Below are positions 1-42,419 of a stretch of DNA of 64,000 bases, piece after piece. This stretch comes from an uncultured Candidatus Saccharibacteria bacterium. Lineage in GTDB: Bacteria > Patescibacteriota > Saccharimonadia > Saccharimonadales > JACDBH01. The stretch is from positions 3,216 through 67,215 of the forward strand of contig CAZBAF010000005.1 in NCBI GenBank assembly GCA_964490245.1. Reading direction: 5' to 3'. A program made the translations under genes and the position numbers. The notes below the pieces were generated by a model. That model saw only the letters and a list, made by a program, of their open reading frames with translations, made no database searches and was not told the origin of the DNA. Each line of letters begins with the position of its first letter. Within the stretch, counting starts at the first letter, position 1.

Positions 1-66
1 TATGTTTTTATCCGGACAGGTTCCCTCTCAGACCGTAACTTCAGGCCGGGCTTGCATGTACTATTT

Positions 67-80
67 TGGCTCCTCCCAGA
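67..80 (-). repeat. 14-nt copy of the tRNA-Phe 3' end
   Basis: tggctcctcccaga equals the T-stem/acceptor 3' end of the intact tRNA-Phe at 413-488. No other tRNA parts lie around it. Confidence 0.6.
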
Positions 81-238
81 ATACTCCTGCGCGCCGAGAA
101 ACTATTTTCTCGGGCTTAGGATATAGCCGTTTGGCCGGAAAACTGACCGGCCAAGCCGTTATTGAACCGCCGACAGGCAGCGGTTCAGGTTGGCAATAAC
201 GACCACGAAAAAACCCGCCACAGGGGCGGGTGCTTTCG

Positions 239-256
239 TGGTGGCTCCTCCCAGAC
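239..256 (-). repeat. 18-nt copy of the tRNA-Phe 3' end including CCA
   Basis: tggtggctcctcccagac is identical to 413-430. On the minus strand it is followed by a hairpin (cccgcc/ggcggg, 214-230) and a T-run, like the intact gene. Confidence 0.7.
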
Positions 257-380
257 AGCGGTCTTTGACCTTCTCCAGCCAAAAGGGTCGAAAGCAAGCT
301 TTCGCGTTCCTTTTGGCTTCCGCCGAACTGACCCGCCAATCGGCGGATCCCAGTTCGAGCCTGCAAAGATATCAGCCAAG
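257..380 (-). repeat. right-type structured tRNA-flank module (Phe locus)
   Basis: Read on the minus strand it has an anti-T-loop-like ggctcgaactggg, a ccgcc-gatt-ggcgg hairpin, a 9-bp gccaaaagg/ccttttggc stem, and ends gagaaggtc before the 3' fragment. The order of elements matches the module at 1597-1699. Confidence 0.45.
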
Positions 381-411
381 TAAAAACCCCACGCGCAGGT
401 GGGGGTTTTAC
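381..411 (-). terminator. rho-independent terminator after tRNA-Phe
   Basis: The minus strand reads aaaacccccac-ctgcgc-gtggggttttt directly after the CCA end. Confidence 0.7.
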
Positions 412-412
412 T

Positions 413-488
413 TGGTGGCTCCTCCCAGACTCGAACTGGGGACACAAGGCTCTTCAGGCCTCTGCTCTACCAACTGAGCTAAAGAGCC
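413..488 (-). tRNA. tRNA-Phe (anticodon GAA), CCA encoded
   Basis: The reverse complement ggctctttagctcagttggtagagcagaggcctgaagagccttgtgtccccagttcgagtctgggaggagccacca folds as a cloverleaf with anticodon loop CTGAAGA. Confidence 0.92.
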
Positions 489-620
489 GAATTTAATCGA
501 TCTATGAAGTTGATTGTAAATGCCCTCGTCGCGCTAAAGGCTCTAACGCTCGGTGTTAATAAATTGTAACACCTCGCTACCTTGTCAAGCCGTAAAGGCT
601 TGACCGGCGTCAGGCCATTA

Positions 621-644
621 CTCTACCAACTGAGCTAAAGAGCC
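621..644 (-). pseudogene. tRNA-Phe 5' fragment (acceptor 5' strand plus D-arm)
   Basis: ggctctttagctcagttggtagag is identical to the first 24 nt of the intact tRNA-Phe. It then diverges into 132 nt of hairpin-rich spacer. Confidence 0.7.
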
Positions 645-721
645 GCAAATTACGGATTAGCACGACGCCGCTTATTTTACTGCAGAACGGGGAATTTCTC
701 AAGGTGACTTTATGGGTACGG

Positions 722-1078
722 CTAGGCCATCATGGCCAGGCTTTTTGACAGCTCGCTCAGATCTGCAATCTGCTTGTCTATGTCGACAAACTTCATATCG
801 GCTTCGCCCTGGGCTGCAGTAATGTCCCGTTCGAGCTGCTTGATCTCGTCATCCAGGCGACGCACCTGTGTGTCAAACTGTACTCGTTCGAGCTCGTTCT
901 GGGTCCGGGCCTGCTGCTGGCGAATGATGTTCTGTTGCGATTTAAGTTCGTTTATTTGCTGCATCATCTCATTCTTGCGCGCATCTGTTTGCTCTTTGAC
1001 TTGCTGACGCAGGAGCCTCAGATCATCGGTGGCGCGCAGAATATTGGTAGCGGCGGTCTGTAGGTGAACATTTGGCAT
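722..1078 (-). CDS. hypothetical coiled-coil protein (118 aa)
   Basis: The ORF has a Q/E/R/L-rich heptad-like composition, an aaaggatcatcctc sequence before the ATG, and its own promoter at 1188-1217. Confidence 0.6.
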   Translation of the reverse strand: MPNVHLQTAATNILRATDDLRLLRQQVKEQTDARKNEMMQQINELKSQQNIIRQQQARTQNELERVQFDTQVRRLDDEIKQLERDITAAQGEADMKFVDIDKQIADLSELSKSLAMMA

Positions 1079-1187
1079 GAGGATGATCCTTTATTAATTA
1101 AGGCATCTTAAAGTATAAAAAGAGGAAGCGGTCAGTGTCTGTAAGAAAGATTACAGCGCATTGCACGAAAAATGACCCTATCTTCTT

Positions 1188-1217
1188 ATTATAGCACAGA
1201 TTACGTATGTTTGTCAA
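1188..1217 (-). promoter_or_regulatory. sigma70-type promoter P1 (TTGACA-N18-TGcTATAAT) with conserved leader
   Basis: The minus strand reads cttgacaaacatacgtaatctgtgctataat followed by aagaagatagggtc. It is a member of the 3-copy motif family (see 16615 and 48451). Confidence 0.65.
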
Positions 1218-1277
1218 GTCTCGGCTAAAATTCTTTGCTTATCTCTGTTGATATGATATTATTCTTTGGATAATTCC

Positions 1278-1330
1278 GGGTTGTTAGCTCAGTTGGCCCT
1301 GGTCTCTCGTTTACACCGAGAGGGTCGGGG
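1278..1330 (+). pseudogene. tRNA-Val 5' part (positions 1 to the 5' strand of the T-stem), decayed D-arm
   Basis: The first 19 nt and a further 26 nt (tctcgtttacaccgagagggtcgggg, including the TAC anticodon loop) are identical to the intact tRNA-Val at 1477-1553. It is interrupted right after gtcgggg. Confidence 0.75.
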
Positions 1331-1452
1331 TGAGAACTGCCAGTGGCTCCGCTGAAGAGCGGATCGCAAGGGAATCTTCCGATGCAAGCTGTGCTTGCAA
1401 TCGCGAAGTTCCGGGCCCGCCGGAGGTGGGTCGAGTCCTGGACTCGAACCCC
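1331..1452 (+). repeat. left-type structured module V (122 nt)
   Basis: It starts tgagaactgccagtgg, contains tcgcaagg, a long hairpin at 1371-1412, and a terminal near-palindrome ggtcgagtcc-tg-gactcgaacc. It is collinear with 24143-24262. Confidence 0.6.
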
Positions 1453-1476
1453 AATTAGTTTTACAATTACAAACAA

Positions 1477-1553
1477 GGGTTGTTAGCTCAGTTGGCTAGA
1501 GCATCTCGTTTACACCGAGAGGGTCGGGGGTTCGAGTCCCTCACAACCCACCA
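1477..1553 (+). tRNA. tRNA-Val (anticodon TAC), CCA encoded
   Basis: gggttgttagctcagttggctagagcatctcgtttacaccgagagggtcgggggttcgagtccctcacaacccacca forms a 77-nt cloverleaf. Confidence 0.92.
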
Positions 1554-1555
1554 TG

Positions 1556-1586
1556 AAAAAAGCCGTCACTTGTGACGGCTTTTTTC
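1556..1586 (+). terminator. rho-independent terminator after tRNA-Val
   Basis: aaaaaagccgtca-cttg-tgacggctttttt. Confidence 0.8.
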
Positions 1587-1596
1587 ATGGTATGAT

Positions 1597-1699
1597 CCGG
1601 GGACTCGAACGGGAATGTCCAGTGGACATTCCCCGCCCTTGGCTTTTCGGCTGTGCTGAAAAGTTTCTGTAGCAAAAGTAAGTTTCTTTTGCGCAGGAA
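1597..1699 (+). repeat. right-type structured module V2 (103 nt)
   Basis: ggggactcgaac (complement of a T-loop), hairpin ggaatgtcc-agt-ggacattcc, hairpin cttttc-ggctgtgct-gaaaag, ending gcaggaag. Confidence 0.55.
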
Positions 1700-1723
1700 G
1701 GTCGAGTCCCTCACAACCCACCA
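1700..1723 (+). pseudogene. displaced tRNA-Val 3' part (T-loop to CCA)
   Basis: ggtcgagtccctcacaacccacca matches 1530-1553 of the intact gene at 23 of 24 positions. Confidence 0.75.
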
Positions 1724-1730
1724 ATACAAG

Positions 1731-1758
1731 AGACCCTGCTGCCAAGTAGGGTCTTTTG
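1731..1758 (+). terminator. hairpin plus T-tract after the tRNA-Val 3' fragment
   Basis: agaccct-gctgccaagt-agggtct-tttg. Confidence 0.55.
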
Positions 1759-1878
1759 TACTGACGGATCATAATTCCGCCCGGCGGCAACCTGACAAAA
1801 TGCCGGCAGGCACTATGAAAAAGCAAGCCACAAGTGCTATACTAAAACCATAAACTAACAGGGGAGAGAGACAGAATT

Positions 1879-2445
1879 ATGATGTGGTTACTTATTGTCG
1901 GCGGCGTTGTGTTGCTGCTGGTTATTATTTTTGCAGCAATGTACAACGGCCTGATCAGGCTGAATATTCGTGCCGACGAGGCCTGGAGTGACATAACCGT
2001 TCAGATGAAGCGCCGGCTTGACCTTATCCCAAACCTTATCGAAACAGTCAAGGGATACGCCAAGCACGAAAAGGGCGTGTTTGAAGAAGTTACCCAAGCC
2101 CGTACGGCGATTATGAATGCCCAGGGTCCTGCAGAAACGGGCCGGGCCGAGAACATGCTGGAAGGCGCACTAAAGAGCATTTTTGCAGTTGCCGAGGCAT
2201 ATCCTGATCTGAAGGCTGATGCCAACTTCCGTGATCTGCAAGCCGAGCTGGTTGATACTGAGAACAAAATCCAGGCCTCACGCCGGTTTTATAACGGTGT
2301 AGTACGCGACTTTAACACCAAGCGCCGGGTGTTCCCGACCAATATCTTTGCCAGCATGCTGGGCTTTAAAGCCGACCGCGAGTTCTTTGATGTTGAAGAT
2401 GGCGAACGCGAAGAAGTCAATAAGCCGGTATCGGTCAAATTTTAA
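1879..2445 (+). CDS. lemA: LemA family membrane protein
   Basis: An N-terminal TM helix is followed by YNGLIRL...EAWSDI...RRLDLIPNLIETVKGYAKHE, typical of LemA. Confidence 0.88.
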   Translation: MMWLLIVGGVVLLLVIIFAAMYNGLIRLNIRADEAWSDITVQMKRRLDLIPNLIETVKGYAKHEKGVFEEVTQARTAIMNAQGPAETGRAENMLEGALKSIFAVAEAYPDLKADANFRDLQAELVDTENKIQASRRFYNGVVRDFNTKRRVFPTNIFASMLGFKADREFFDVEDGEREEVNKPVSVKF

Positions 2446-2479: not shown

Positions 2480-2854
2480 ATGACTAATCCAATTAACTCA
2501 TTTACGCAGTTGAGGACATGGCAAAAAGCACGCGATTTTGCAGTTGCAGTCTATAAAACTACAGCTGAGTTTCCTGCATCAGGAAAGTACGGGATGTCAT
2601 CACAGTTACGTCGCGCCACCGTTTCGGTTGCGGCAAACATAGCGGAAGGCTTCTCTCGTAACACCGCTAAAGAAAAGTTGAATTTTTATGGAATGAGCCT
2701 CGGTTCACTGACTGAAGTGCAGAGTCATCTATATATCGCACATGATCTTGGGTTTGTCAGCAAATCACAACTTGTGCTGCATATAGACGAGTCGGTAGCT
2801 ATACAGAAGATGATCAATGGTTTAAAGAAAAGTGCGAAAGGGAGAGATACGTAA
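2480..2854 (+). CDS. four-helix-bundle protein (23S rRNA intervening-sequence protein / Avd-like family)
   Basis: TWQKARDFAVAVYKTT..FP....YGMSSQLRRATVSVAANIAEGFSR..........GSLTEVQSHLYIA matches the family pattern. The gene is flanked by ~18-bp inverted repeats. Confidence 0.8.
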   Translation: MTNPINSFTQLRTWQKARDFAVAVYKTTAEFPASGKYGMSSQLRRATVSVAANIAEGFSRNTAKEKLNFYGMSLGSLTEVQSHLYIAHDLGFVSKSQLVLHIDESVAIQKMINGLKKSAKGRDT

Positions 2855-7434: not shown

Positions 7435-7511
7435 GGGGCTGTAGCTCAGTTGGCTAGAGCGCTTGTATGGCATACAAGAGGTCTGGGGTTCGAGTCCCCA
7501 TAGCTCCACCA
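7435..7511 (+). tRNA. tRNA-Ala (anticodon GGC), CCA encoded
   Basis: ggggctgtagctcagttggctagagcgcttgtatggcatacaagaggtctggggttcgagtccccatagctccacca has a G3:U70 pair. It has no flanking partial copies. Confidence 0.9.
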
Positions 7512-23994: not shown

Positions 23995-24142
23995 TGGGGA
24001 TTGGCCATTCGCTGGCTAGCGAAGGTAAGGCAACGGTGAGAACTGCCAGTGGCAGTTTGGAAACGAACCTTCTCTTGAGAACTTGTTTTCAAAGTTGAAG
24101 TTCGGGGGTCGCGGAACGTGACTCTAGGTCCCGTGATCGGGG
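23995..24142 (+). pseudogene. mosaic tRNA-Gln 5' part: three exact tRNA pieces separated by insertions in the D-loop and anticodon loop
   Basis: Pieces 23995-24007, 24024-24036 and 24127-24142 are identical to the intact tRNA-Gln. A 16-nt hairpin (24008-24023) replaces agt, and a 90-nt module (24037-24126) replaces gttct of the anticodon loop. Confidence 0.75.
24037..24126 (+). repeat. structured module I2 (90 nt) in the anticodon-loop position
   Basis: It starts tgagaactgccagtggcagtt and has a long hairpin at 24064-24104 and a small hairpin gtcgcg-gaa-cgtgac. It is a paralogue of 24143-24262. Confidence 0.6.
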
Positions 24143-24262
24143 AGAGACATGCCACTGGCATGTCGCAAGGACATCAACTCTTGAGAACTATGTTCTCAAA
24201 GATGTTGTGTCGGGGTCGCAGGATGTGACGGCGGAACGTCGGTCGAATCCGGGTTCGAACCC
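24143..24262 (+). repeat. left-type structured module I3 (120 nt) in the T-loop position
   Basis: agagacatgccactggcatgtcgcaagg, a long hairpin at 24171-24210, gtcgca-gga-tgtgac, and a terminal ggtcgaa-tccggg-ttcgaacc. It is collinear with 1331-1452. Confidence 0.6.
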
Positions 24263-24289
24263 TTTGTATGTTAAAATCAGAGTAATTAT

Positions 24290-24363
24290 TGGGGATTGGC
24301 CAAGTGGTAAGGCAACGGGTTCTGGTCCCGTGATCGGGGGTTCGAATCCCTCATCCCCAGCCA
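24290..24363 (+). tRNA. tRNA-Gln (anticodon CTG), CCA encoded
   Basis: tggggattggccaagtggtaaggcaacgggttctggtcccgtgatcgggggttcgaatccctcatccccagcca. Confidence 0.9.
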
Positions 24364-24381
24364 AGCATAAGCACTATGAAA
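24358..24381 (+). repeat. 24-bp direct repeat DR1 (tRNA-Gln 3' end plus flank)
   Basis: cagccaagcataagcactatgaaa is identical to 26625-26648. Both copies are followed by a gacttc/gaagtc-type hairpin. Confidence 0.85.
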
Positions 24382-24406
24382 GACTTCCATCAGAGAAGTC
24401 TTTTTG
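24381..24406 (+). terminator. terminator hairpin after tRNA-Gln
   Basis: agacttc-catcaga-gaagtct-tttt. Confidence 0.7.
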
Positions 24407-24423
24407 TTTGTTATGATAATCCT

Positions 24424-24903
24424 ATGTCTTATTCTCAAAAATATTGTTTAGTCTCATTTATTAACCCAATTGGTACTAATACCGAGTTTGATATGACTGA
24501 TTGGCCATTACACGTTACATTGGCTGATGTGTTTGCAATAGATCTTCGCAAAACCAAAATTGAAGCTAAGCTAGAAAAACTATTATCAAGCCATCATCCA
24601 ATTAAAACGCTTGCAGGTATTGAAGCTACTCTAGGAACCACGGAAGTAATCTTGTTAGATAAAACCAAGGAGCTTGATGCTCTACATTCTAGTACGGTTG
24701 ATCTACTTGAGGATAACGGTGCACAATTTAATACTCCGGAATTCACAAGAGGGGGATTTGTGCCTCATTGCACCATTCAGAAGGTGGAGAGGCTACTTAT
24801 GGGTGATGAAGTGATTATTAGAAACATAGCACTCGTTGATATGTTCCCTAATGAAAATTGGCAGCAAAGAAAGATCATTAACATATTCAGATTACAGGAT
24901 TAG
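24424..24903 (+). CDS. 2H phosphoesterase superfamily protein (LigT / 2'-5' RNA ligase-like)
   Basis: Two H-x-T-x motifs (LHVTL and PHCTI) lie about 85 aa apart. The start is moved to the ATG at 24424, past the terminator hairpin. The sequence is AT-rich. Confidence 0.65.
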   Translation: MSYSQKYCLVSFINPIGTNTEFDMTDWPLHVTLADVFAIDLRKTKIEAKLEKLLSSHHPIKTLAGIEATLGTTEVILLDKTKELDALHSSTVDLLEDNGAQFNTPEFTRGGFVPHCTIQKVERLLMGDEVIIRNIALVDMFPNENWQQRKIINIFRLQD

Positions 24904-25042: not shown

Positions 25043-26584
25043 ATGCCCTCTCTCTACATTAATCAGCAAACTGAAGCCGAGAAGGACGATTACTTATTCG
25101 ATTGCTTTCACGACACAGGCGTCATTTCGGAATTGGTTCATTCAAGGTATACAATTTTGGCAGGCCGTAAAGGCATGGGAAAATCAGCAGTCGCAAGATA
25201 TCTTGAAAAGAATGCTGAAAAATACGATCTTGATTTTGTTTTCAAGTTATCGATCCGCAATTTTAACATAAAGCGGTTTGATACTGAAAAGAACACTCTT
25301 GACTCTATTCTGTACTATGTAGTGGTCAAGTCTATACAGAAAATGCTTAATGTTAATTATTTTTCTAATGAAGCAGCCAAATACTGGAAGGACTTTTTAC
25401 TAGATAATGGCCTACAGCAGCTAGCCGATTATGAATCTTTTGTGACCACAAAAAAATCCCGAAAAACTGGGTTTTCTATAAAAGCAGTAGCTTCCTACCT
25501 ATTTGCTAAAGGCGAAGGCAGCACAAAGTTGAATTTCGAAACTGAAAAGCAACGTGCCGAAATTGCCGACTCACCATCTTCTCTATTTGATTCTCTTCGA
25601 CAGAGTATTAATCCTAAACATAAAGTAATCATTTTTATTGATGATATTAGCGATTACCTAGACGAATCTGACAGAAACGTATTATTAAAAGATCTTGCTA
25701 TCATTCAAAACCTTCTATTAAATTTGCAAACCTATAACCTTAATTTTGCAGAGGAGGAGCTGAATCTTCGTTTTGTATCATTGGTTAGAGACGACATCTT
25801 TGAGTACATGGAAGGCTCGAATGTAAATAAATTAAAAACGGATAGCTTGAAACTTGTTTGGGATGAAAAGGCTTTTGCAAGTTTGCTTATTCGACGAATG
25901 CCCTATTTTGCCGACAAGCTAGATGAGGCGCTTGAAAACCCAGTGACTTCACTTAAGGAACGTTTTCCCGATGATATATTTACGGACTTCCTAAAGTCAT
26001 TCTCGACAAACCGATACGGCAGTAACTTCTATGCATACATGGCGGCAATATCATTCAACAGACCCCGTGATTTCCTTCAGTTTTGCTATGCGTTGCGTAA
26101 TCGTTTAAGTTTACGCCACCCTGCAACATTTGAGAACATTGATGCCGCAGAAATCGAATATTCCAATTATTTTATACAGGAACTGCGTGACGAACTATAC
26201 GTAGCTAGCAGGGTTTTTGATTATGACTTTAGTCAGGAGCGCATCGATCACTTAGTAGATATATTGAGTAAGAATGACATGTTTAACTCATCCCAATTAA
26301 AAACAGATCTCTCTGCCTTTATAGGCACAAAGACCAGCATCGGAAATAAAAAAATTGAAGCCTTACTCGCAGAGTTGTGGAGATACGGGGTAATAGGTGT
26401 TTCCGAAAAACCTACTAAATCTATAAAGCCAGCCAAAAAGACTACTCCCGAGAAAACAGAAAAATTAATACTTTTTAAGTATTTATCTGATTCAGCGGTC
26501 TTCACATCAGAGAAAATAAAAAACTACACATTTTACCTACATCGAGGCTTGTGGTGGTTTGCTAAAAAGAGACGAAACGATTAA
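25043..26584 (+). CDS. P-loop NTPase, uncharacterised (513 aa)
   Basis: Walker A GRKGMGKS, Walker B-like VIIFIDDISD, a later RPRD motif, and a long helical C-terminal region. The sequence is AT-rich. Confidence 0.7.
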   Translation: MPSLYINQQTEAEKDDYLFDCFHDTGVISELVHSRYTILAGRKGMGKSAVARYLEKNAEKYDLDFVFKLSIRNFNIKRFDTEKNTLDSILYYVVVKSIQKMLNVNYFSNEAAKYWKDFLLDNGLQQLADYESFVTTKKSRKTGFSIKAVASYLFAKGEGSTKLNFETEKQRAEIADSPSSLFDSLRQSINPKHKVIIFIDDISDYLDESDRNVLLKDLAIIQNLLLNLQTYNLNFAEEELNLRFVSLVRDDIFEYMEGSNVNKLKTDSLKLVWDEKAFASLLIRRMPYFADKLDEALENPVTSLKERFPDDIFTDFLKSFSTNRYGSNFYAYMAAISFNRPRDFLQFCYALRNRLSLRHPATFENIDAAEIEYSNYFIQELRDELYVASRVFDYDFSQERIDHLVDILSKNDMFNSSQLKTDLSAFIGTKTSIGNKKIEALLAELWRYGVIGVSEKPTKSIKPAKKTTPEKTEKLILFKYLSDSAVFTSEKIKNYTFYLHRGLWWFAKKRRND

Positions 26585-41154: not shown

Positions 41155-41271
41155 AACACCCCCTAGTTTATGCTTATGGTTGAGCCCATTATCTGGCTTT
41201 GCTTTTGGTAAGTCAATGACGTTTGTGTTTTTACGTCCGCTTCGTTATAGTGAAAGTGCTTAACAACCTAA

Positions 41272-41384
41272 ATATCAAGAGTGCAGCGAGAGTCCTAGCT
41301 CTGTGACCTGCCAGCAACCTGCTTAATAAGGCGAAGCCGTAAGTAAGGTGCTTCATCTAGCCGCCTGTATGGGTGGAAAGATAT
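41272..41384 (+). promoter_or_regulatory. SAM riboswitch (SAM-I clan) upstream of metK
   Basis: aUAUCAAGAG...GAGAG...GCAACC...AAGGUGC...aaGAUAU, with P1 pairing auauc/gauau. The downstream hairpin tatcctttc/gaaaggata plus T-run (41394-41429) covers the RBS. Confidence 0.65.
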
Positions 41385-41429
41385 GTTTTCTCGTATCCTT
41401 TCAGCTATATAGGCAGAAAGGATATTTTT

Positions 41430-42419
41430 ATGTCAAAACCAATTTACAGAACTGCAGAGTCGGTAAGTCCAAGGCACCCGGACAAAATCTGCGATCAACT
41501 ATCGGATGCGATTTTGGACGCATACCTGGCAGAAGATCCTGATGCGCGTGTGGCTGTCGAGGCTGTCGGCGGACACGGCAAAGTATTTGTGACGGGTGAG
41601 GTGACTAGCATTGCACATCCGAACATAGAGCCCATCATCAAGCGCATCGCAGGCGAGAATATTGAAGCAGAAGTGCGGTTGGTCAGGCAGAGTCCGGAGA
41701 TTGCGCAGGGCGTTGACATAGGCGGCGCTGGCGACCAAGGCATAATGGTAGGCTATGCTACGGATGAGACTCCGGAACTTTTGCCGCTTGAAGTTGTGCT
41801 AAGTAGAAAACTCAACCAACACCTTTACAGTATCTGGCCGCATGACGGCAAAACGCAGGTAACGCTCAAGAATGGCATTATCCAATCGGCTGTTGCCAGC
41901 TTTCAGCACGCGTCAGGACGTGAGCTGAGGAAAGCGGTTGCCAGGTGGCTAGAGGAAAACGGGTATGACCCCGGCAACGTTGAAATACACGCCAACCCGG
42001 CGGGCGATTGGCAGCAGGGCGGGTTTGACGCTGATACTGGCCTGACTGGACGTAAACTGGTGGTTGATAATTATGGTCCCCGGGTCCCAATTGGGGGTGG
42101 CTGTTTCAGCGGCAAAGACCCGAGCAAAGTCGACCGTTCGGCAGCCTACATGGCGCGTAAGGTTGCGGTAGATTACTTGAAAAAGCATGACGCCAAAGAA
42201 GTCTTTGTATACCTTGCCTATGCCATCGGCTACGCCCAGCCGCTTGAGGCGACGGTCATTATTGACGGCAGGCACGAAGAAATCAAGGGCTATGATTTGA
42301 CGCCGCGCGGGATAATCCAGGCCCTGGAACTGAGGCGCCCGATTTACGAACAGACTGCCAGGTACGGGCATTTTGGGCACGCCGGGTTACCGTGGGAGGA
42401 TGCTATACTCAAAGCATGA
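41430..42419 (+). CDS. metK: S-adenosylmethionine synthetase (short, 329 aa)
   Basis: [22 protein letters not shown]...[12 protein letters not shown]...[19 protein letters not shown]. Confidence 0.9.

Follow-up and report, generated by a model that had tools for sequence, protein, structure and literature searches.

The closest described counterparts of the locus reported here are the tRNA-linked repeats (TLRs) of Escherichia coli, which have been known since 1978 and for which neither an origin nor a function has been established. [quoted passage not shown] The class covers the 178-bp repeats distal to tyrT and tyrV (RtT, RF00391) as well as rrA, rrB and rrF after 5S rRNA. The tyrT/tyrV repeats comprise an inverted piece (GGGGAAGGAT), a sense piece (AAGGTTCGA), an insert of approximately 70 nt in the T-loop and a 19-nt 3′ copy, and in the Rfam RtT consensus the inverted piece is paired with the 3′ copy, leaving ccaCCACCA unpaired. 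RtT is listed by Rfam in enterobacteria. For some E. coli TLRs, expression as well as in vitro binding to Hfq and CsrA has been reported, and a study of the E. coli mobilome detected raised coverage at the rttR/tyrT region but no circular DNA.

We analysed a stretch of 64,000 nt from an uncultured Candidatus Saccharibacteria bacterium (contig CAZBAF010000005.1; hereafter the window), near the start of which a tRNA-Phe gene is accompanied by partial copies of itself. The intact gene, a tRNA-Phe(GAA) with its CCA encoded, was placed at 488–413 by the initial annotation, and both ARAGORN and Rfam confirmed it there (413–488, minus strand); its sequence is identical over 76/76 positions in three relatives, L002, L007 and L009. 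All the copies lie on the same, minus strand as the gene. Upstream, an exact copy of tRNA positions 1–24 (621–644) reaches tRNA position 36 at 92% identity (36 nt, 645–610). Downstream, two exact units and one decayed unit are found, ending respectively in a first 3′ copy of 18 nt (GTCTGGGAGGAGCCACCA, tRNA positions 59–76; 239–256), a second of 14 nt (tRNA positions 60–73; 67–80) and a decayed further copy (GTCTGAGAGGGAACC, about 19–33, 10/15 positions matching when counted by hand). In the alignment with relatives, this last copy faces an 18-nt copy that is perfect and has its terminator in L007, and one that is degenerate in L002. The serial fragments claimed initially (644–621, 256–239 and 80–67) were thus recovered exactly, by k-mer mapping as well as by pattern scans. 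The 5′ 24-mer occurs twice, versus 0.00 expected from shuffles, and the 3′ 14-mer has three exact occurrences inside 430 nt, versus 0.34 expected when two mismatches are allowed in the expectation; start-to-start spacings of the 3′ copies are 174 and 175 nt. None of the five ORFs in 1–480 has a Pfam match, which is consistent with the earlier view that they are spurious.

The sequences between these copies are structured (all coordinates of the array refer to the minus strand). The tRNA is followed by a first terminator (376–415), a palindrome with 17-nt arms whose stem takes in the CCA of the tRNA, with a terminator-like hairpin and U-tract at 404–387. Module 1 (257–375) then consists of an inverted T-arm piece (363–349, the reverse complement of tRNA 63–49 with one mismatch), a hairpin, a sense CAGTTCG equal to tRNA 51–57, and two hairpins (approx. 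66 nt); its folding energy is −59.1 kcal/mol (z = −3.4). After 3′ copy 1 comes a second terminator (208–238; hairpin and U-tract at 231–213), followed by module 2 (81–207), which contains three hairpins, including GGCCGG.../...CCGGCC, and folds with z = −4.5. The proposal that each 3′ copy possesses its own terminator therefore holds for the 18-nt copy, whereas none was recognizable for the 14-nt copy (80–67) within the window. Although the 3′ copies begin at tRNA positions 59 and 60, the likeness between the tRNA and copy 1 continues through their terminators (71% over 49 nt of copy and terminator). Modules 1 and 2 share only a weak similarity of 31 nt (z = 2.7, reached by 6/300 shuffles).

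Downstream units have a recurrent order: an inverted T-arm piece, two or three hairpins, a sense stretch running from the T-loop to the CCA and, usually, an intrinsic terminator, the hairpins occupying the place of the T-loop. The same order of elements (inverted T-arm, hairpins, 3′ copy, terminator) had been noticed in module 1 and in the right arm of a neighbouring tRNA-Val locus, and this correspondence is real (inverted T-arms at 363–349 and 1599–1610, respectively). Both are predicted to fold into a compact multi-hairpin RNA closed by pairing between the inverted piece and the 3′ copy, from which the acceptor 3′ strand and the CCA emerge single-stranded; in the predicted fold of module 2, the 3′ copy is unpaired.

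This architecture is close to that of the TLRs. Indeed, units of approximately 150–180 nt lie directly downstream of the tRNA, on the same strand and one to five per locus, and end in a match to the tRNA 3′ end (18–19 nt in TLRs; 18/18 and 14/14 at the Phe locus). As in RtT, a sense 5′ part of the T-arm precedes the T-loop insert, and an inverted T-stem/acceptor piece is predicted to pair with the 3′ copy, leaving the ...CCA tail single-stranded (module 1 and Val right arm). The rRNA-operon TLRs, for their part, have dual terminators. However, the RtT model gave no match at E ≤ 10 in window positions 1–1900, when the same model scored 133–138 bits on E. coli, so that the resemblance is architectural only. 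Moreover, E. coli TLRs are handled as one family (rrA, rrB and rrF being more than 98% identical to each other), whereas many unrelated modules share the layout here; tRNA-Phe and at least one 3′ copy have an intrinsic terminator, mirror-image 5′ copies occur upstream, and the host is a CPR bacterium. We give about an even chance to the reading that we prefer, namely that tRNA-Phe sits in a stack of TLR-like units which arose as local duplications and are transcribed together with it, and which would correspond in Saccharibacteria to the TLR/RtT repeats of E. coli.

The upstream side represents the mirror case, in which the 5′ part of the tRNA, from position 1, is followed by hairpins. A promoter-like site, TTGAGA-17-TAAAAT (674–702), precedes the 5′ copy and aligns with TTGAGT-17-TAGAAT in L002; it probably drives a transcript comprising leader and tRNA-Phe. 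As the upstream unit, with its hairpin-rich spacer (489–620), lies downstream of this conserved promoter, it is probably a pre-tRNA leader. The 5′ copy and part of the spacer (644–545) fold as a rod with an acceptor-like closing helix, GGCUCU/AGAGCC (−52.7 kcal/mol, z = −5.2), and 644–538 gives a weak Rfam tRNA match (18.6 bits). Copy and spacer together (644–489) match L002 at 63% identity, and the hairpin differences between the two appear, by eye, to be compensatory; next to tRNA-Phe, conservation of the spacer is not visible in the L002 alignment.

Two further tRNA genes in the window, both on the plus strand, display related arrangements. At the tRNA-Val locus (1278..1757), a copy of tRNA positions 1–53 (1278-1330) is followed by a structured element that we call type A (1332-1429), an inverted T-arm (1440-1452), the tRNA gene itself (1477-1553), its terminator (1550-1591) and the right arm, composed of the inverted T-arm already mentioned, a hairpin module, a 3′ copy of tRNA positions 56–77 (1702-1723) and, at about 1727-1757, a hairpin carrying a short run of T that the terminator scan did not list. 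At the tRNA-Gln locus (23995..24363), the gene (24290-24363) is preceded by a pseudo-copy retaining positions 1–13, 17–29 and 35–50, which is broken by a D-loop hairpin and by two type A elements (24038-24122 and 24144-24229). The suspected kinship of the Phe fragments with the Val and Gln modules is upheld. The Phe modules do not, however, belong to the dispersed type A family: when modules 1 and 2, the leader and the distal segment were used as nhmmer queries on approximately 2 Mb of fetched loci, the matches were limited to orthologues of module 2 and the leader, and module 1 had no homologue elsewhere.

Across Saccharibacteria loci, partial copies of their own sequence accompanied 34 of 202 tRNAs (about one in six): a 5′ part lay upstream of 24 and a 3′ part downstream of 17, while four went against this polarity. 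Among the 27 tRNAs with a downstream 3′ copy, 17 had an inverted match, exact over 8 nt or more, in the interval; 15 of these 17 matches fell in the T-arm third of the tRNA, and nearly all of the 17 were situated 42–60 nt past the tRNA end (range 30–86). The modules form at least three families. Type A, approximately 85 nt long and without an Rfam entry, resides inside partial tRNA copies and accompanies at least 11 tRNA specificities; its covariation is strong and strand-specific, and its G·U pairs point to RNA. In metagenome locus L174, a 24-nt 5′ copy identical to that of the window lies upstream of tRNA-Phe and is followed by a type A element. The type A model scored a non-significant 6.7 bits on rttR, and at E ≤ 10 Rfam returned only tRNAs and noise for the Phe/Val, Gln and L008 regions, with no ribozyme, intron or RtT. 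A homology of the type A stem P1 to the T-arm was considered and rejected, as the stem covaries freely and its resemblance to GTTCG is coincidental. In locus L008 (contig JACDBH010000004.1), an otherwise complete tRNA-Gly(GCC) is interrupted by an insert, the sole exception to the rule that interrupted copies are incomplete.

Orthologues of the Phe array are present in the independent MAGs L002, L007 and L009, which argues against an assembly artefact. These genomes are distant: third codon positions of LemA agree at only 47% between the window and L007, i.e. near saturation. Searches for sequence beyond the window start found LemA only on a 2.3-kb Logan contig beginning inside tRNA-Val, and a 118-aa ORF had no record; nor did that ORF yield homologues leading to further orthologous arrays. 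Module 2 is nonetheless 78% identical in L002, 61% in L009 and 55% in L007, against 27–50% for the flanks, and its GGCCGG.../...CCGGCC hairpin is altered on both strands in L002 and L009; L002 and L007 keep 13/14 positions of 3′ copy 2, which L009 has lost. Likewise, 3′ copy 1 and terminator 2 are 85% identical to L007, terminator 1 only 43%. The retention of module 2 and its copy despite such divergence is unlike what decaying scars would display. Other parts have changed rapidly. The unit formed by module 1, copy 1 and terminator 2 is polymorphic for presence among relatives (module 1 is missing from L002 and L009), the module 1 interiors of the window and L007 are unrelated, and the right arms of Leu-TAA tRNAs carry three different module types at orthologous sites; such unrelated modules at orthologous sites indicate turnover rather than long-term function. 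The conservation of the short copies could also result from gene conversion by the invariant tRNA instead of selection.

These observations bear on a first alternative, namely that the array consists of neutral scars without RNA function, produced by template switching at a highly transcribed, hairpin-rich tRNA and terminator through duplication, inversion and duplication, tolerated while one gene is intact, and kept similar to the tRNA by gene conversion alone. The layout is that of duplication–inversion–duplication, turnover is fast, distal copies decay (to the point of loss of copy 2 in L009), and no sequence related to module 1 or 2 turned up at any other locus, all of which such scars would explain. 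They would not explain why module 2, as well as copy 1 with terminator 2, is conserved far above the flanks and terminator 1, nor the alteration of both strands of the module 2 hairpin; the related type A modules moreover display strand-specific covariation typical of functional RNA, and the design recurs independently in E. coli, where expression and in vitro binding of Hfq and CsrA are on record for some TLRs. We thus consider neutral scars to be rather unlikely.

The initial annotation had read the array as the footprint of repeated site-specific integration, and tRNA-targeting integrative elements (attL/attR pairs, tandem islands and CIMEs) do leave comparable arrays, with serial direct repeats of the tRNA 3′ part starting in the T-arm, an intact gene at one end, more decayed copies at the distal end and, possibly, displaced fragments of another allele. 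However, the evidence does not support this reading. Pfam detected neither an integrase nor a transposase in approximately 40 window ORFs (a set that excludes about 17 ORFs at 41–64 kb), which comprised housekeeping genes only. The intervals measure 120–160 nt, too short to hold elements, as had been recognized from the outset, and in L002 the array ends approximately 540 nt before tRNA-Cys, leaving no room for one. Nor, within the window, are the copies accounted for by the attL and attR of an ordinary element. In addition to the retained module 2 and the RtT-like design, the 5′ copies upstream, the inverted T-arm piece, the locally duplicated terminators and promoters, and the conserved, structured module interiors set this array apart. 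Other loci show that duplication occurred in place: at L097 both copies have identical terminators, and at L089 the duplicated promoter region is identical, both of which indicate local copying; at L036, the 3′ copy and the sequence after it are exactly duplicated.

A more specific version invokes miniature, non-autonomous integrative elements (compare CIMEs and the Xer-exploiting IMEX), mobilized by a recombinase encoded elsewhere through recombination of a small circle with the T-loop. Each insertion, bringing a T-loop-to-CCA segment and a terminator, would restore the tRNA and shift the old 3′ end outward, so that the array would grow on its tRNA-proximal side. The 3′ copies do begin in the T-arm, a classic crossover site of integrases; the copy nearest the tRNA is the newest and most exact, the distal one the most decayed; and the polymorphic presence of the unit made of module 1, copy 1 and terminator 2 would follow from insertion or its absence. 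Exactness of the copies could similarly reflect a selfish need for intact att cores, and type A appears to move between tRNA loci. Displaced fragments of an allele other than that of the intact gene, found at L002 Ala, L063 Ala and L044 Val, would also fit; yet the whole tRNA-Ala of L002 differs, including its 5′ half, which an element carrying the 3′ part only cannot explain. Besides the recombinase missing from the ORFs tested and the local copying described above, the upstream 5′ copies would call for another class of element that mirrors the first, neither attL nor attR would be expected to contain an inverted T-arm piece, and the 18-nt copies are not visible as bounds of the indel that separates the window from L002. 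When viral contigs were scanned with the 18-nt Phe 3′ copy, two matched and neither showed an attP-like site, one carrying an ordinary host-type tRNA-Phe in a Gly-Phe-Gly cluster and the other matching at the end of its stored locus. Miniature elements are therefore, in our opinion, improbable as the source of the array.

Under the preferred reading of TLR-like units, the array would have originated by partial tandem duplication in place with small inverted fill-ins, a process supported by the near-equal periods of the Phe array, 174 and 175 nt. Breakpoints would fall within the hairpin loops of the tRNA itself, mainly the T-loop, and as only outcomes keeping one intact single-copy tRNA survive, the polarity of the fragments would be mostly consistent. 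New units would be added beside the tRNA, while distal units decay. By analogy with the E. coli TLRs, the units may be transcribed with the tRNA by read-through, and the 3′-end copy may provide the trailer RNA with the determinant by which the tRNA itself is end-processed. Nevertheless, abundant read-through is hard to reconcile with the strong terminator that follows the tRNA, and the clustering of breakpoints in the T-loop lies far above what random duplication gives, so that a site-specific process fits at least as well.

Units made of a scaffold, then a 14–22-nt tRNA match, then a terminator also recall guide-type RNAs, in which the match would direct a nuclease or transposase to intact tRNA genes as in omega RNA-like systems; alternatively, as the tail of the 3′ copy could pair with the acceptor strand that the 5′ copy carries, the two fragment RNAs might assemble in trans into a tRNA-like molecule. 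The 5′ flank of type A, GG then T and occasionally GGTC in nearly all copies inspected, could be seen in the same light, and together with the hairpins at both ends it invites comparison with IS200/IS605 miniature elements (PATE) and omega-RNA. Type A, however, terminates in a covarying stem without a conserved 3′ terminal motif, and neither TnpB, IscB or Cas (among the ORFs tested) nor a transposase (Pfam, approx. 40 window ORFs) was seen. Furthermore, the copy lengths equal the T-loop-to-CCA distance, 5′ copies of 53–65 nt exceed the length of a guide, and most loci are one-sided, so that assembly in trans cannot be the general rule. Guide or split-tRNA functions thus appear highly improbable.

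[quoted passage not shown] 2026, PMC13011429). The inserts described here differ in measuring 66–100 nt, in lying mostly in the T-loop and in residing in partial copies beside an intact gene (L008 excepted), and neither a group I core nor any ribozyme was matched at E ≤ 10 in the Rfam search of the Phe/Val, Gln and L008 regions. In archaea, tRNA fragments beside intact genes come from element integration (PMC9897764). Disrupted archaeal tRNAs (multiple-intron, split or fragment) resemble the present loci in their D-, anticodon- and T-loop interruptions and in the fragments found by intact genes, but the host here is a bacterium, and the interrupted copies are incomplete, with an intact gene adjoining. 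Bulge-helix-bulge introns require a splicing endonuclease, of which none is known from bacteria. Three other candidates were set aside: IS91-type rolling-circle targeting of GTTC, because the junctions do not fit; integron attC-like sites, because their core motifs were not matched; and a T-loop intron, because all copies but one lie in incomplete genes.

The unit design of the E. coli repeats, with its inverted T-arm, T-loop insert, 3′ copy and terminator, is thus now found in a distant, genome-reduced phylum. It occurs there in many unrelated versions, upstream as well as downstream of the tRNA and at about one tRNA in six, which makes it look like the product of a general process acting on tRNA genes and not an enterobacterial curiosity, and the many independent instances allow mutual comparison. 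Tentatively, and with more doubt than confidence, one may go further and envisage in Saccharibacteria a general system that builds structured RNA modules into the T-loops of partial copies beside an intact tRNA, either as tRNA-scaffolded ncRNAs borrowing promoters, terminators and end-processing, or as a mobile RNA or DNA element that creates the copies on insertion. If such a system exists, the E. coli TLR/RtT repeats would be one enterobacterial offshoot of the same process. In practice, the fragments can mislead tRNA annotation as well as att-site and prophage prediction in CPR genomes, and, as the interrupted tRNA-Gly of L008 indicates, the tRNA inventories of such genomes may be miscounted.

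The tRNA-Phe(GAA) gene (488–413, minus strand; identified by ARAGORN and Rfam) lies among partial copies of itself. When all its k-mers were mapped back onto the window, three exact copies were recovered, all on the tRNA strand: a 5′ copy of tRNA positions 1–24 (644–621), a 3′ copy of positions 59–76 (256–239) and a second 3′ copy of positions 60–73 (80–67), which bears out the fragments reported in the initial annotation. With a repeat finder, the 5′ copy could be followed over 36 nt (92% identity), and the 3′ copies were found to be spaced at 174 and 175 nt from start to start. Against expectations of 0.00 for the 24-mer and, allowing two mismatches, 0.34 for the 14-mer, the window contains two and three occurrences, respectively, the latter all exact; these patterns are far above chance, and the array is a genuine, non-random feature. 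A decayed fourth copy (approx. 33–19, minus strand) aligns with a perfect 18-nt copy and terminator in L007, one of three relatives (L002, L007 and L009) with an orthologous Phe array. Both the tRNA and the 18-nt copy are followed by a terminator-like hairpin with a U-tract, whereas the 14-nt copy has none inside the window, so that the claim of a terminator for each 3′ copy holds for the 18-nt copy only. The overlapping ORFs in 1–480 have no Pfam match. The Phe terminators begin with the CCA of the tRNA, as at tRNA-Val, where the terminator (1550–1591, plus strand) is a perfect 20-bp palindrome including the ACCA of the tRNA; since these palindromes take in the ACCA or CCA, the mature tRNA 3′ end would be sequestered within the stem of the terminator in the primary transcript.

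The array is best described as a tRNA-linked repeat array, composed of leader and trailer units derived from partial tRNA self-copies. Its fragments had been read as the footprint of repeated site-specific integration, an interpretation that the orthologous locus does not support: in L002, the array is followed by approximately 540 nt, tRNA-Cys, tRNA-Leu and LemA, with no element-sized gap. The orientation of the array relative to LemA is inverted between the window and L002.

Segments of the array were aligned with those of the three relatives, LemA DNA (75–76% identical; 47% at third codon positions between the window and L007) providing the scale. The tRNA is invariant (76/76 in all three). 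Identities to the window for L002, L007 and L009, respectively, are 74%, 43% and 56% for the first terminator, 78%, 55% and 61% for module 2, and 33%, 39% and 27% for the distal segment (66–1). The 5′ copy and leader (644–489) are 63% identical in L002 and 44% in L007 (the L009 locus begins approx. 11 nt before the tRNA), and the region upstream of the 5′ copy 50% and 42%; the second 3′ copy is retained at 13/14 in both and lost in L009. In one module 2 hairpin, both strands of the stem differ among genomes (window, GGCCGG/CCGGCC; L002, GGCTGG/CCAGCC; L009, GGCCGC/GCGGCC). Of the three relatives, L007 alone has the unit formed by module 1, copy 1 and terminator 2, which L002 and L009 lack; in L007, copy 1 and terminator 2 are 85% identical and module 1 only 40%, its unrelated interior holding a reversed type A element (see below). 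The 5′ copy is preceded by a promoter-like site (TTGAGA-17-TAAAAT; 702–674, minus strand), which aligns with TTGAGT-17-TAGAAT of L002, and the spacer adjoining the tRNA displays no visible conservation in the same alignment; thus, the 5′ copy probably belongs to the pre-tRNA leader.

Module 1 comprises, in order, the reverse complement of tRNA positions 63–49 (363–349, minus strand), a hairpin, sense positions 51–57, approximately 66 nt forming two hairpins, and sense positions 59–76, an arrangement that we interpret as a T-arm fold-back carrying an insert at the T-loop. Inverted partial T-arm copies also occur around tRNA-Val (1477–1553, plus strand), at 1440–1452 and 1599–1610; this gene is flanked by a 5′ copy of 53 nt and a 3′ copy of 22 nt, which lie 199 nt upstream and 170 nt downstream, respectively, measured from start to start. 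In the predicted fold of the Val right arm (z = −5.2), the inverted piece pairs with the 3′ copy in a 10-bp closing helix around three hairpins, leaving ...ACAACCCACCA unpaired, and module 1 is predicted to fold likewise (z = −3.4). Unusual stability is also predicted for module 2 (z = −4.5) and the Phe 5′ leader (z = −5.2).

[quoted passage not shown] Run through the same fragment map, each 178-bp repeat of the MG1655 tyrT/tyrV locus displayed an inverted GGGGAAGGAT, the sense 5′ part of the T-arm AAGGTTCGA, an approximately 70-nt T-loop insert and a 19-nt 3′ copy. In the consensus of RtT, the Rfam model built on these repeats, the inverted piece is paired with the 3′ copy and the CCA tail is free, as in the Saccharibacteria units; however, the two share no sequence homology, and the RtT model has no match at E ≤ 10 in the part of the window searched (1–1900). 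Approximately 30 nt upstream of tyrT (MG1655 1287622–1287660) lies a 10-nt sense match to tRNA-Tyr positions 21–30 (AAGGGAGCAG), which may represent either a faint 5′ equivalent of the TLRs or a coincidence.

The closest relatives of the neighbouring LemA are found in Candidatus Saccharibacteria metagenome-assembled genomes (85–90% identity), and we surveyed 63 Saccharibacteria LemA loci together with the window (202 tRNAs) for exact same-strand fragments (12 nt or longer) no more than 400 nt from the tRNA. Such fragments accompany 34 of the 202 tRNAs (specificities Phe, Val, Leu, Ala, Gly, Cys and Gln), with a marked polarity: the 5′ part lies upstream in 24 cases and the 3′ part downstream in 17, against only four contrary cases. 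In almost all clear cases, 5′ copies begin at tRNA position 1, and 3′ copies begin in the T-arm and reach the CCA end or nearly so. Among 27 tRNAs with a 3′ copy downstream, 17 have an inverted piece (an exact match of 8 nt or more) in the intervening sequence; 15 of these matches fall within the T-arm third of the tRNA, and nearly all 17 lie 42–60 nt beyond the tRNA end (range 30–86), just past the terminator. Controls (1/14 actinobacterial tRNAs and 1/6 tRNAs in unrelated metagenome contigs) are too small for a comparison of rates. The region upstream of LemA in L002–L064 is a tRNA hotspot (Gly-GCC, Phe, Val, Leu-GAG, Cys, Leu-TAA) whose gene order and strand vary between genomes.

Type A, an insert of approximately 85–100 nt beginning with GAGAAC, was first met while following the Val and Gln modules, and is present in the window at 1332–1429, 24038–24122 and 24144–24229 (plus strand). 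Its consensus is GAGAACUGCC-NGU-GGCAGUUCGCAAGG, a long hairpin, then CGGG and a GAA-loop hairpin. Applied to an alignment of eight copies taken from various tRNAs and genomes, RNAalifold predicted 33 pairs, 20 of them with compensatory changes, and a covariance model built from this alignment retrieved 34 copies, 12 strong ones in LemA loci and 22 in metagenome contigs recovered by a degenerate pattern (outside the window: L002, L007–L009, L032, L034, L037, L044, L063 and 18 metagenome loci). When the first set of metagenome matches (18 sequences) was fitted to the model, pairing held in 97.7% of cells and double changes occurred at 26 of the 33 pairs, with shuffled or slid controls nowhere near. 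One position of helix P3 is G·U in 13 sequences and G–C in four, so that the structure is strand-specific, which points to RNA. Sequence contexts place 32 of the 34 copies in sense with respect to the tRNA fragment, over at least 11 specificities; with a single exception, the host is a partial copy next to an intact gene. Most sit between T54 and the T-loop bases that follow it, and some occupy the D-arm, anticodon stem or variable loop; in nearly every copy inspected, the last bases of the 5′ flank are GG followed by T, or occasionally GGTC. Since the orthologous Ala site carries different subtypes in L002 and L009, and an extra hairpin is common to the Val-left copy of the window and the Ala-right copy of L002, type A appears to move or to be exchanged. 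The exception (L008, 1484–1646, minus strand) is a stand-alone, otherwise complete tRNA-Gly(GCC) between two ORFs, its T-loop interrupted by type A, with its own TATAAT box, a perfectly paired acceptor stem and an A·C mismatch in the anticodon stem; ARAGORN finds no intact tRNA-Gly in this 20-kb locus, and the gene may be either an intron-like case or, given the mismatch, a fresh pseudogene. Type A has no Rfam match, differs from the group I introns of Patescibacteria tRNAs, and scores a non-significant 6.7 bits on rttR, although GAGAAG...CUUCG..CAAGG does line up. The Phe modules were ruled out as members despite the common layout, and have no relatives found beyond their orthologues.

As for the origin of the units, in-place duplication is suggested by identical 35-nt terminators behind a tRNA and behind its 3′ copy (L097), by the same promoter region preceding pseudo-copy and real gene (L089) and by an exact duplication of a 3′ copy with its following sequence (L036). 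The near-equal Phe periods, the 71% similarity of the copy-plus-terminator segments across 49 nt and a weak resemblance of modules 1 and 2 over 31 nt (z = 2.7) agree with such duplication, and the recurrent layout of sense 3′ region, inverted T piece and sense 3′ region is a duplication–inversion–duplication pattern. Other cases speak rather for a substitution by foreign or different alleles. Comparison of orthologous Ala sites (L002 11610–11686, L009 6336–6412 and window 7435–7511, the last free of self-fragments by the same mapping) indicates replacement of the whole gene at the same site in L002, since the displaced 3′ fragment (...TAGCTCC) keeps the L009 allele while the intact gene (GGGGCAT...ATGCTCC) has a different T-arm. 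Intact gene and displaced fragment differ likewise in L063 and L044, and in the pseudo-Gln of L137 the anticodon stem pairs perfectly, two compensatory changes distinguishing it from that of the real gene next to it. Moreover, breakpoints cluster in hairpin loops more than random duplication would yield, so that the origin of the units is only partly settled; a miniature integrative or mobile mechanism may make them.

Several neighbouring features were noted. A pseudo-copy in three pieces lies upstream of tRNA-Gln (24290–24363, plus strand), no 3′ copy was found downstream, and a low-GC patch (GC falls to 0.40 in 24–26 kb) directly follows, with genes for a 2′-5′ RNA ligase/2H phosphoesterase family protein (24376–24903, plus strand) and an AAA_16 ATPase (25043–26584, plus strand); the proximity of an RNA-end-healing type enzyme to this heavily rearranged locus may or may not be coincidence. 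Between the Phe and Val arrays, a 118-aa coiled-coil-like ORF (722–1078, minus strand) is preceded by a perfect TTGACA-18-TATAAT promoter with TG extension (1217–1188, minus strand), and has no Pfam match, no homologue in a search of 5.8 billion proteins and no exact copy on record. A 23S rRNA-intervening-sequence/bAvd-like four-helix-bundle protein is encoded between LemA and HtpX (2480–2854, plus strand), and a SAM (S-box) riboswitch (41269–41387, plus strand; 54.7 bits) upstream of the ORF at 41373–42419.

The comparisons establish the anatomy of the Phe array, its lineage-wide recurrence, its partial conservation and its architectural identity with RtT. Beyond this, we infer that the units would originate by duplication in place and, at the RNA level, would be co-transcribed with the tRNA, the 3′ copy serving as a putative end-processing determinant.
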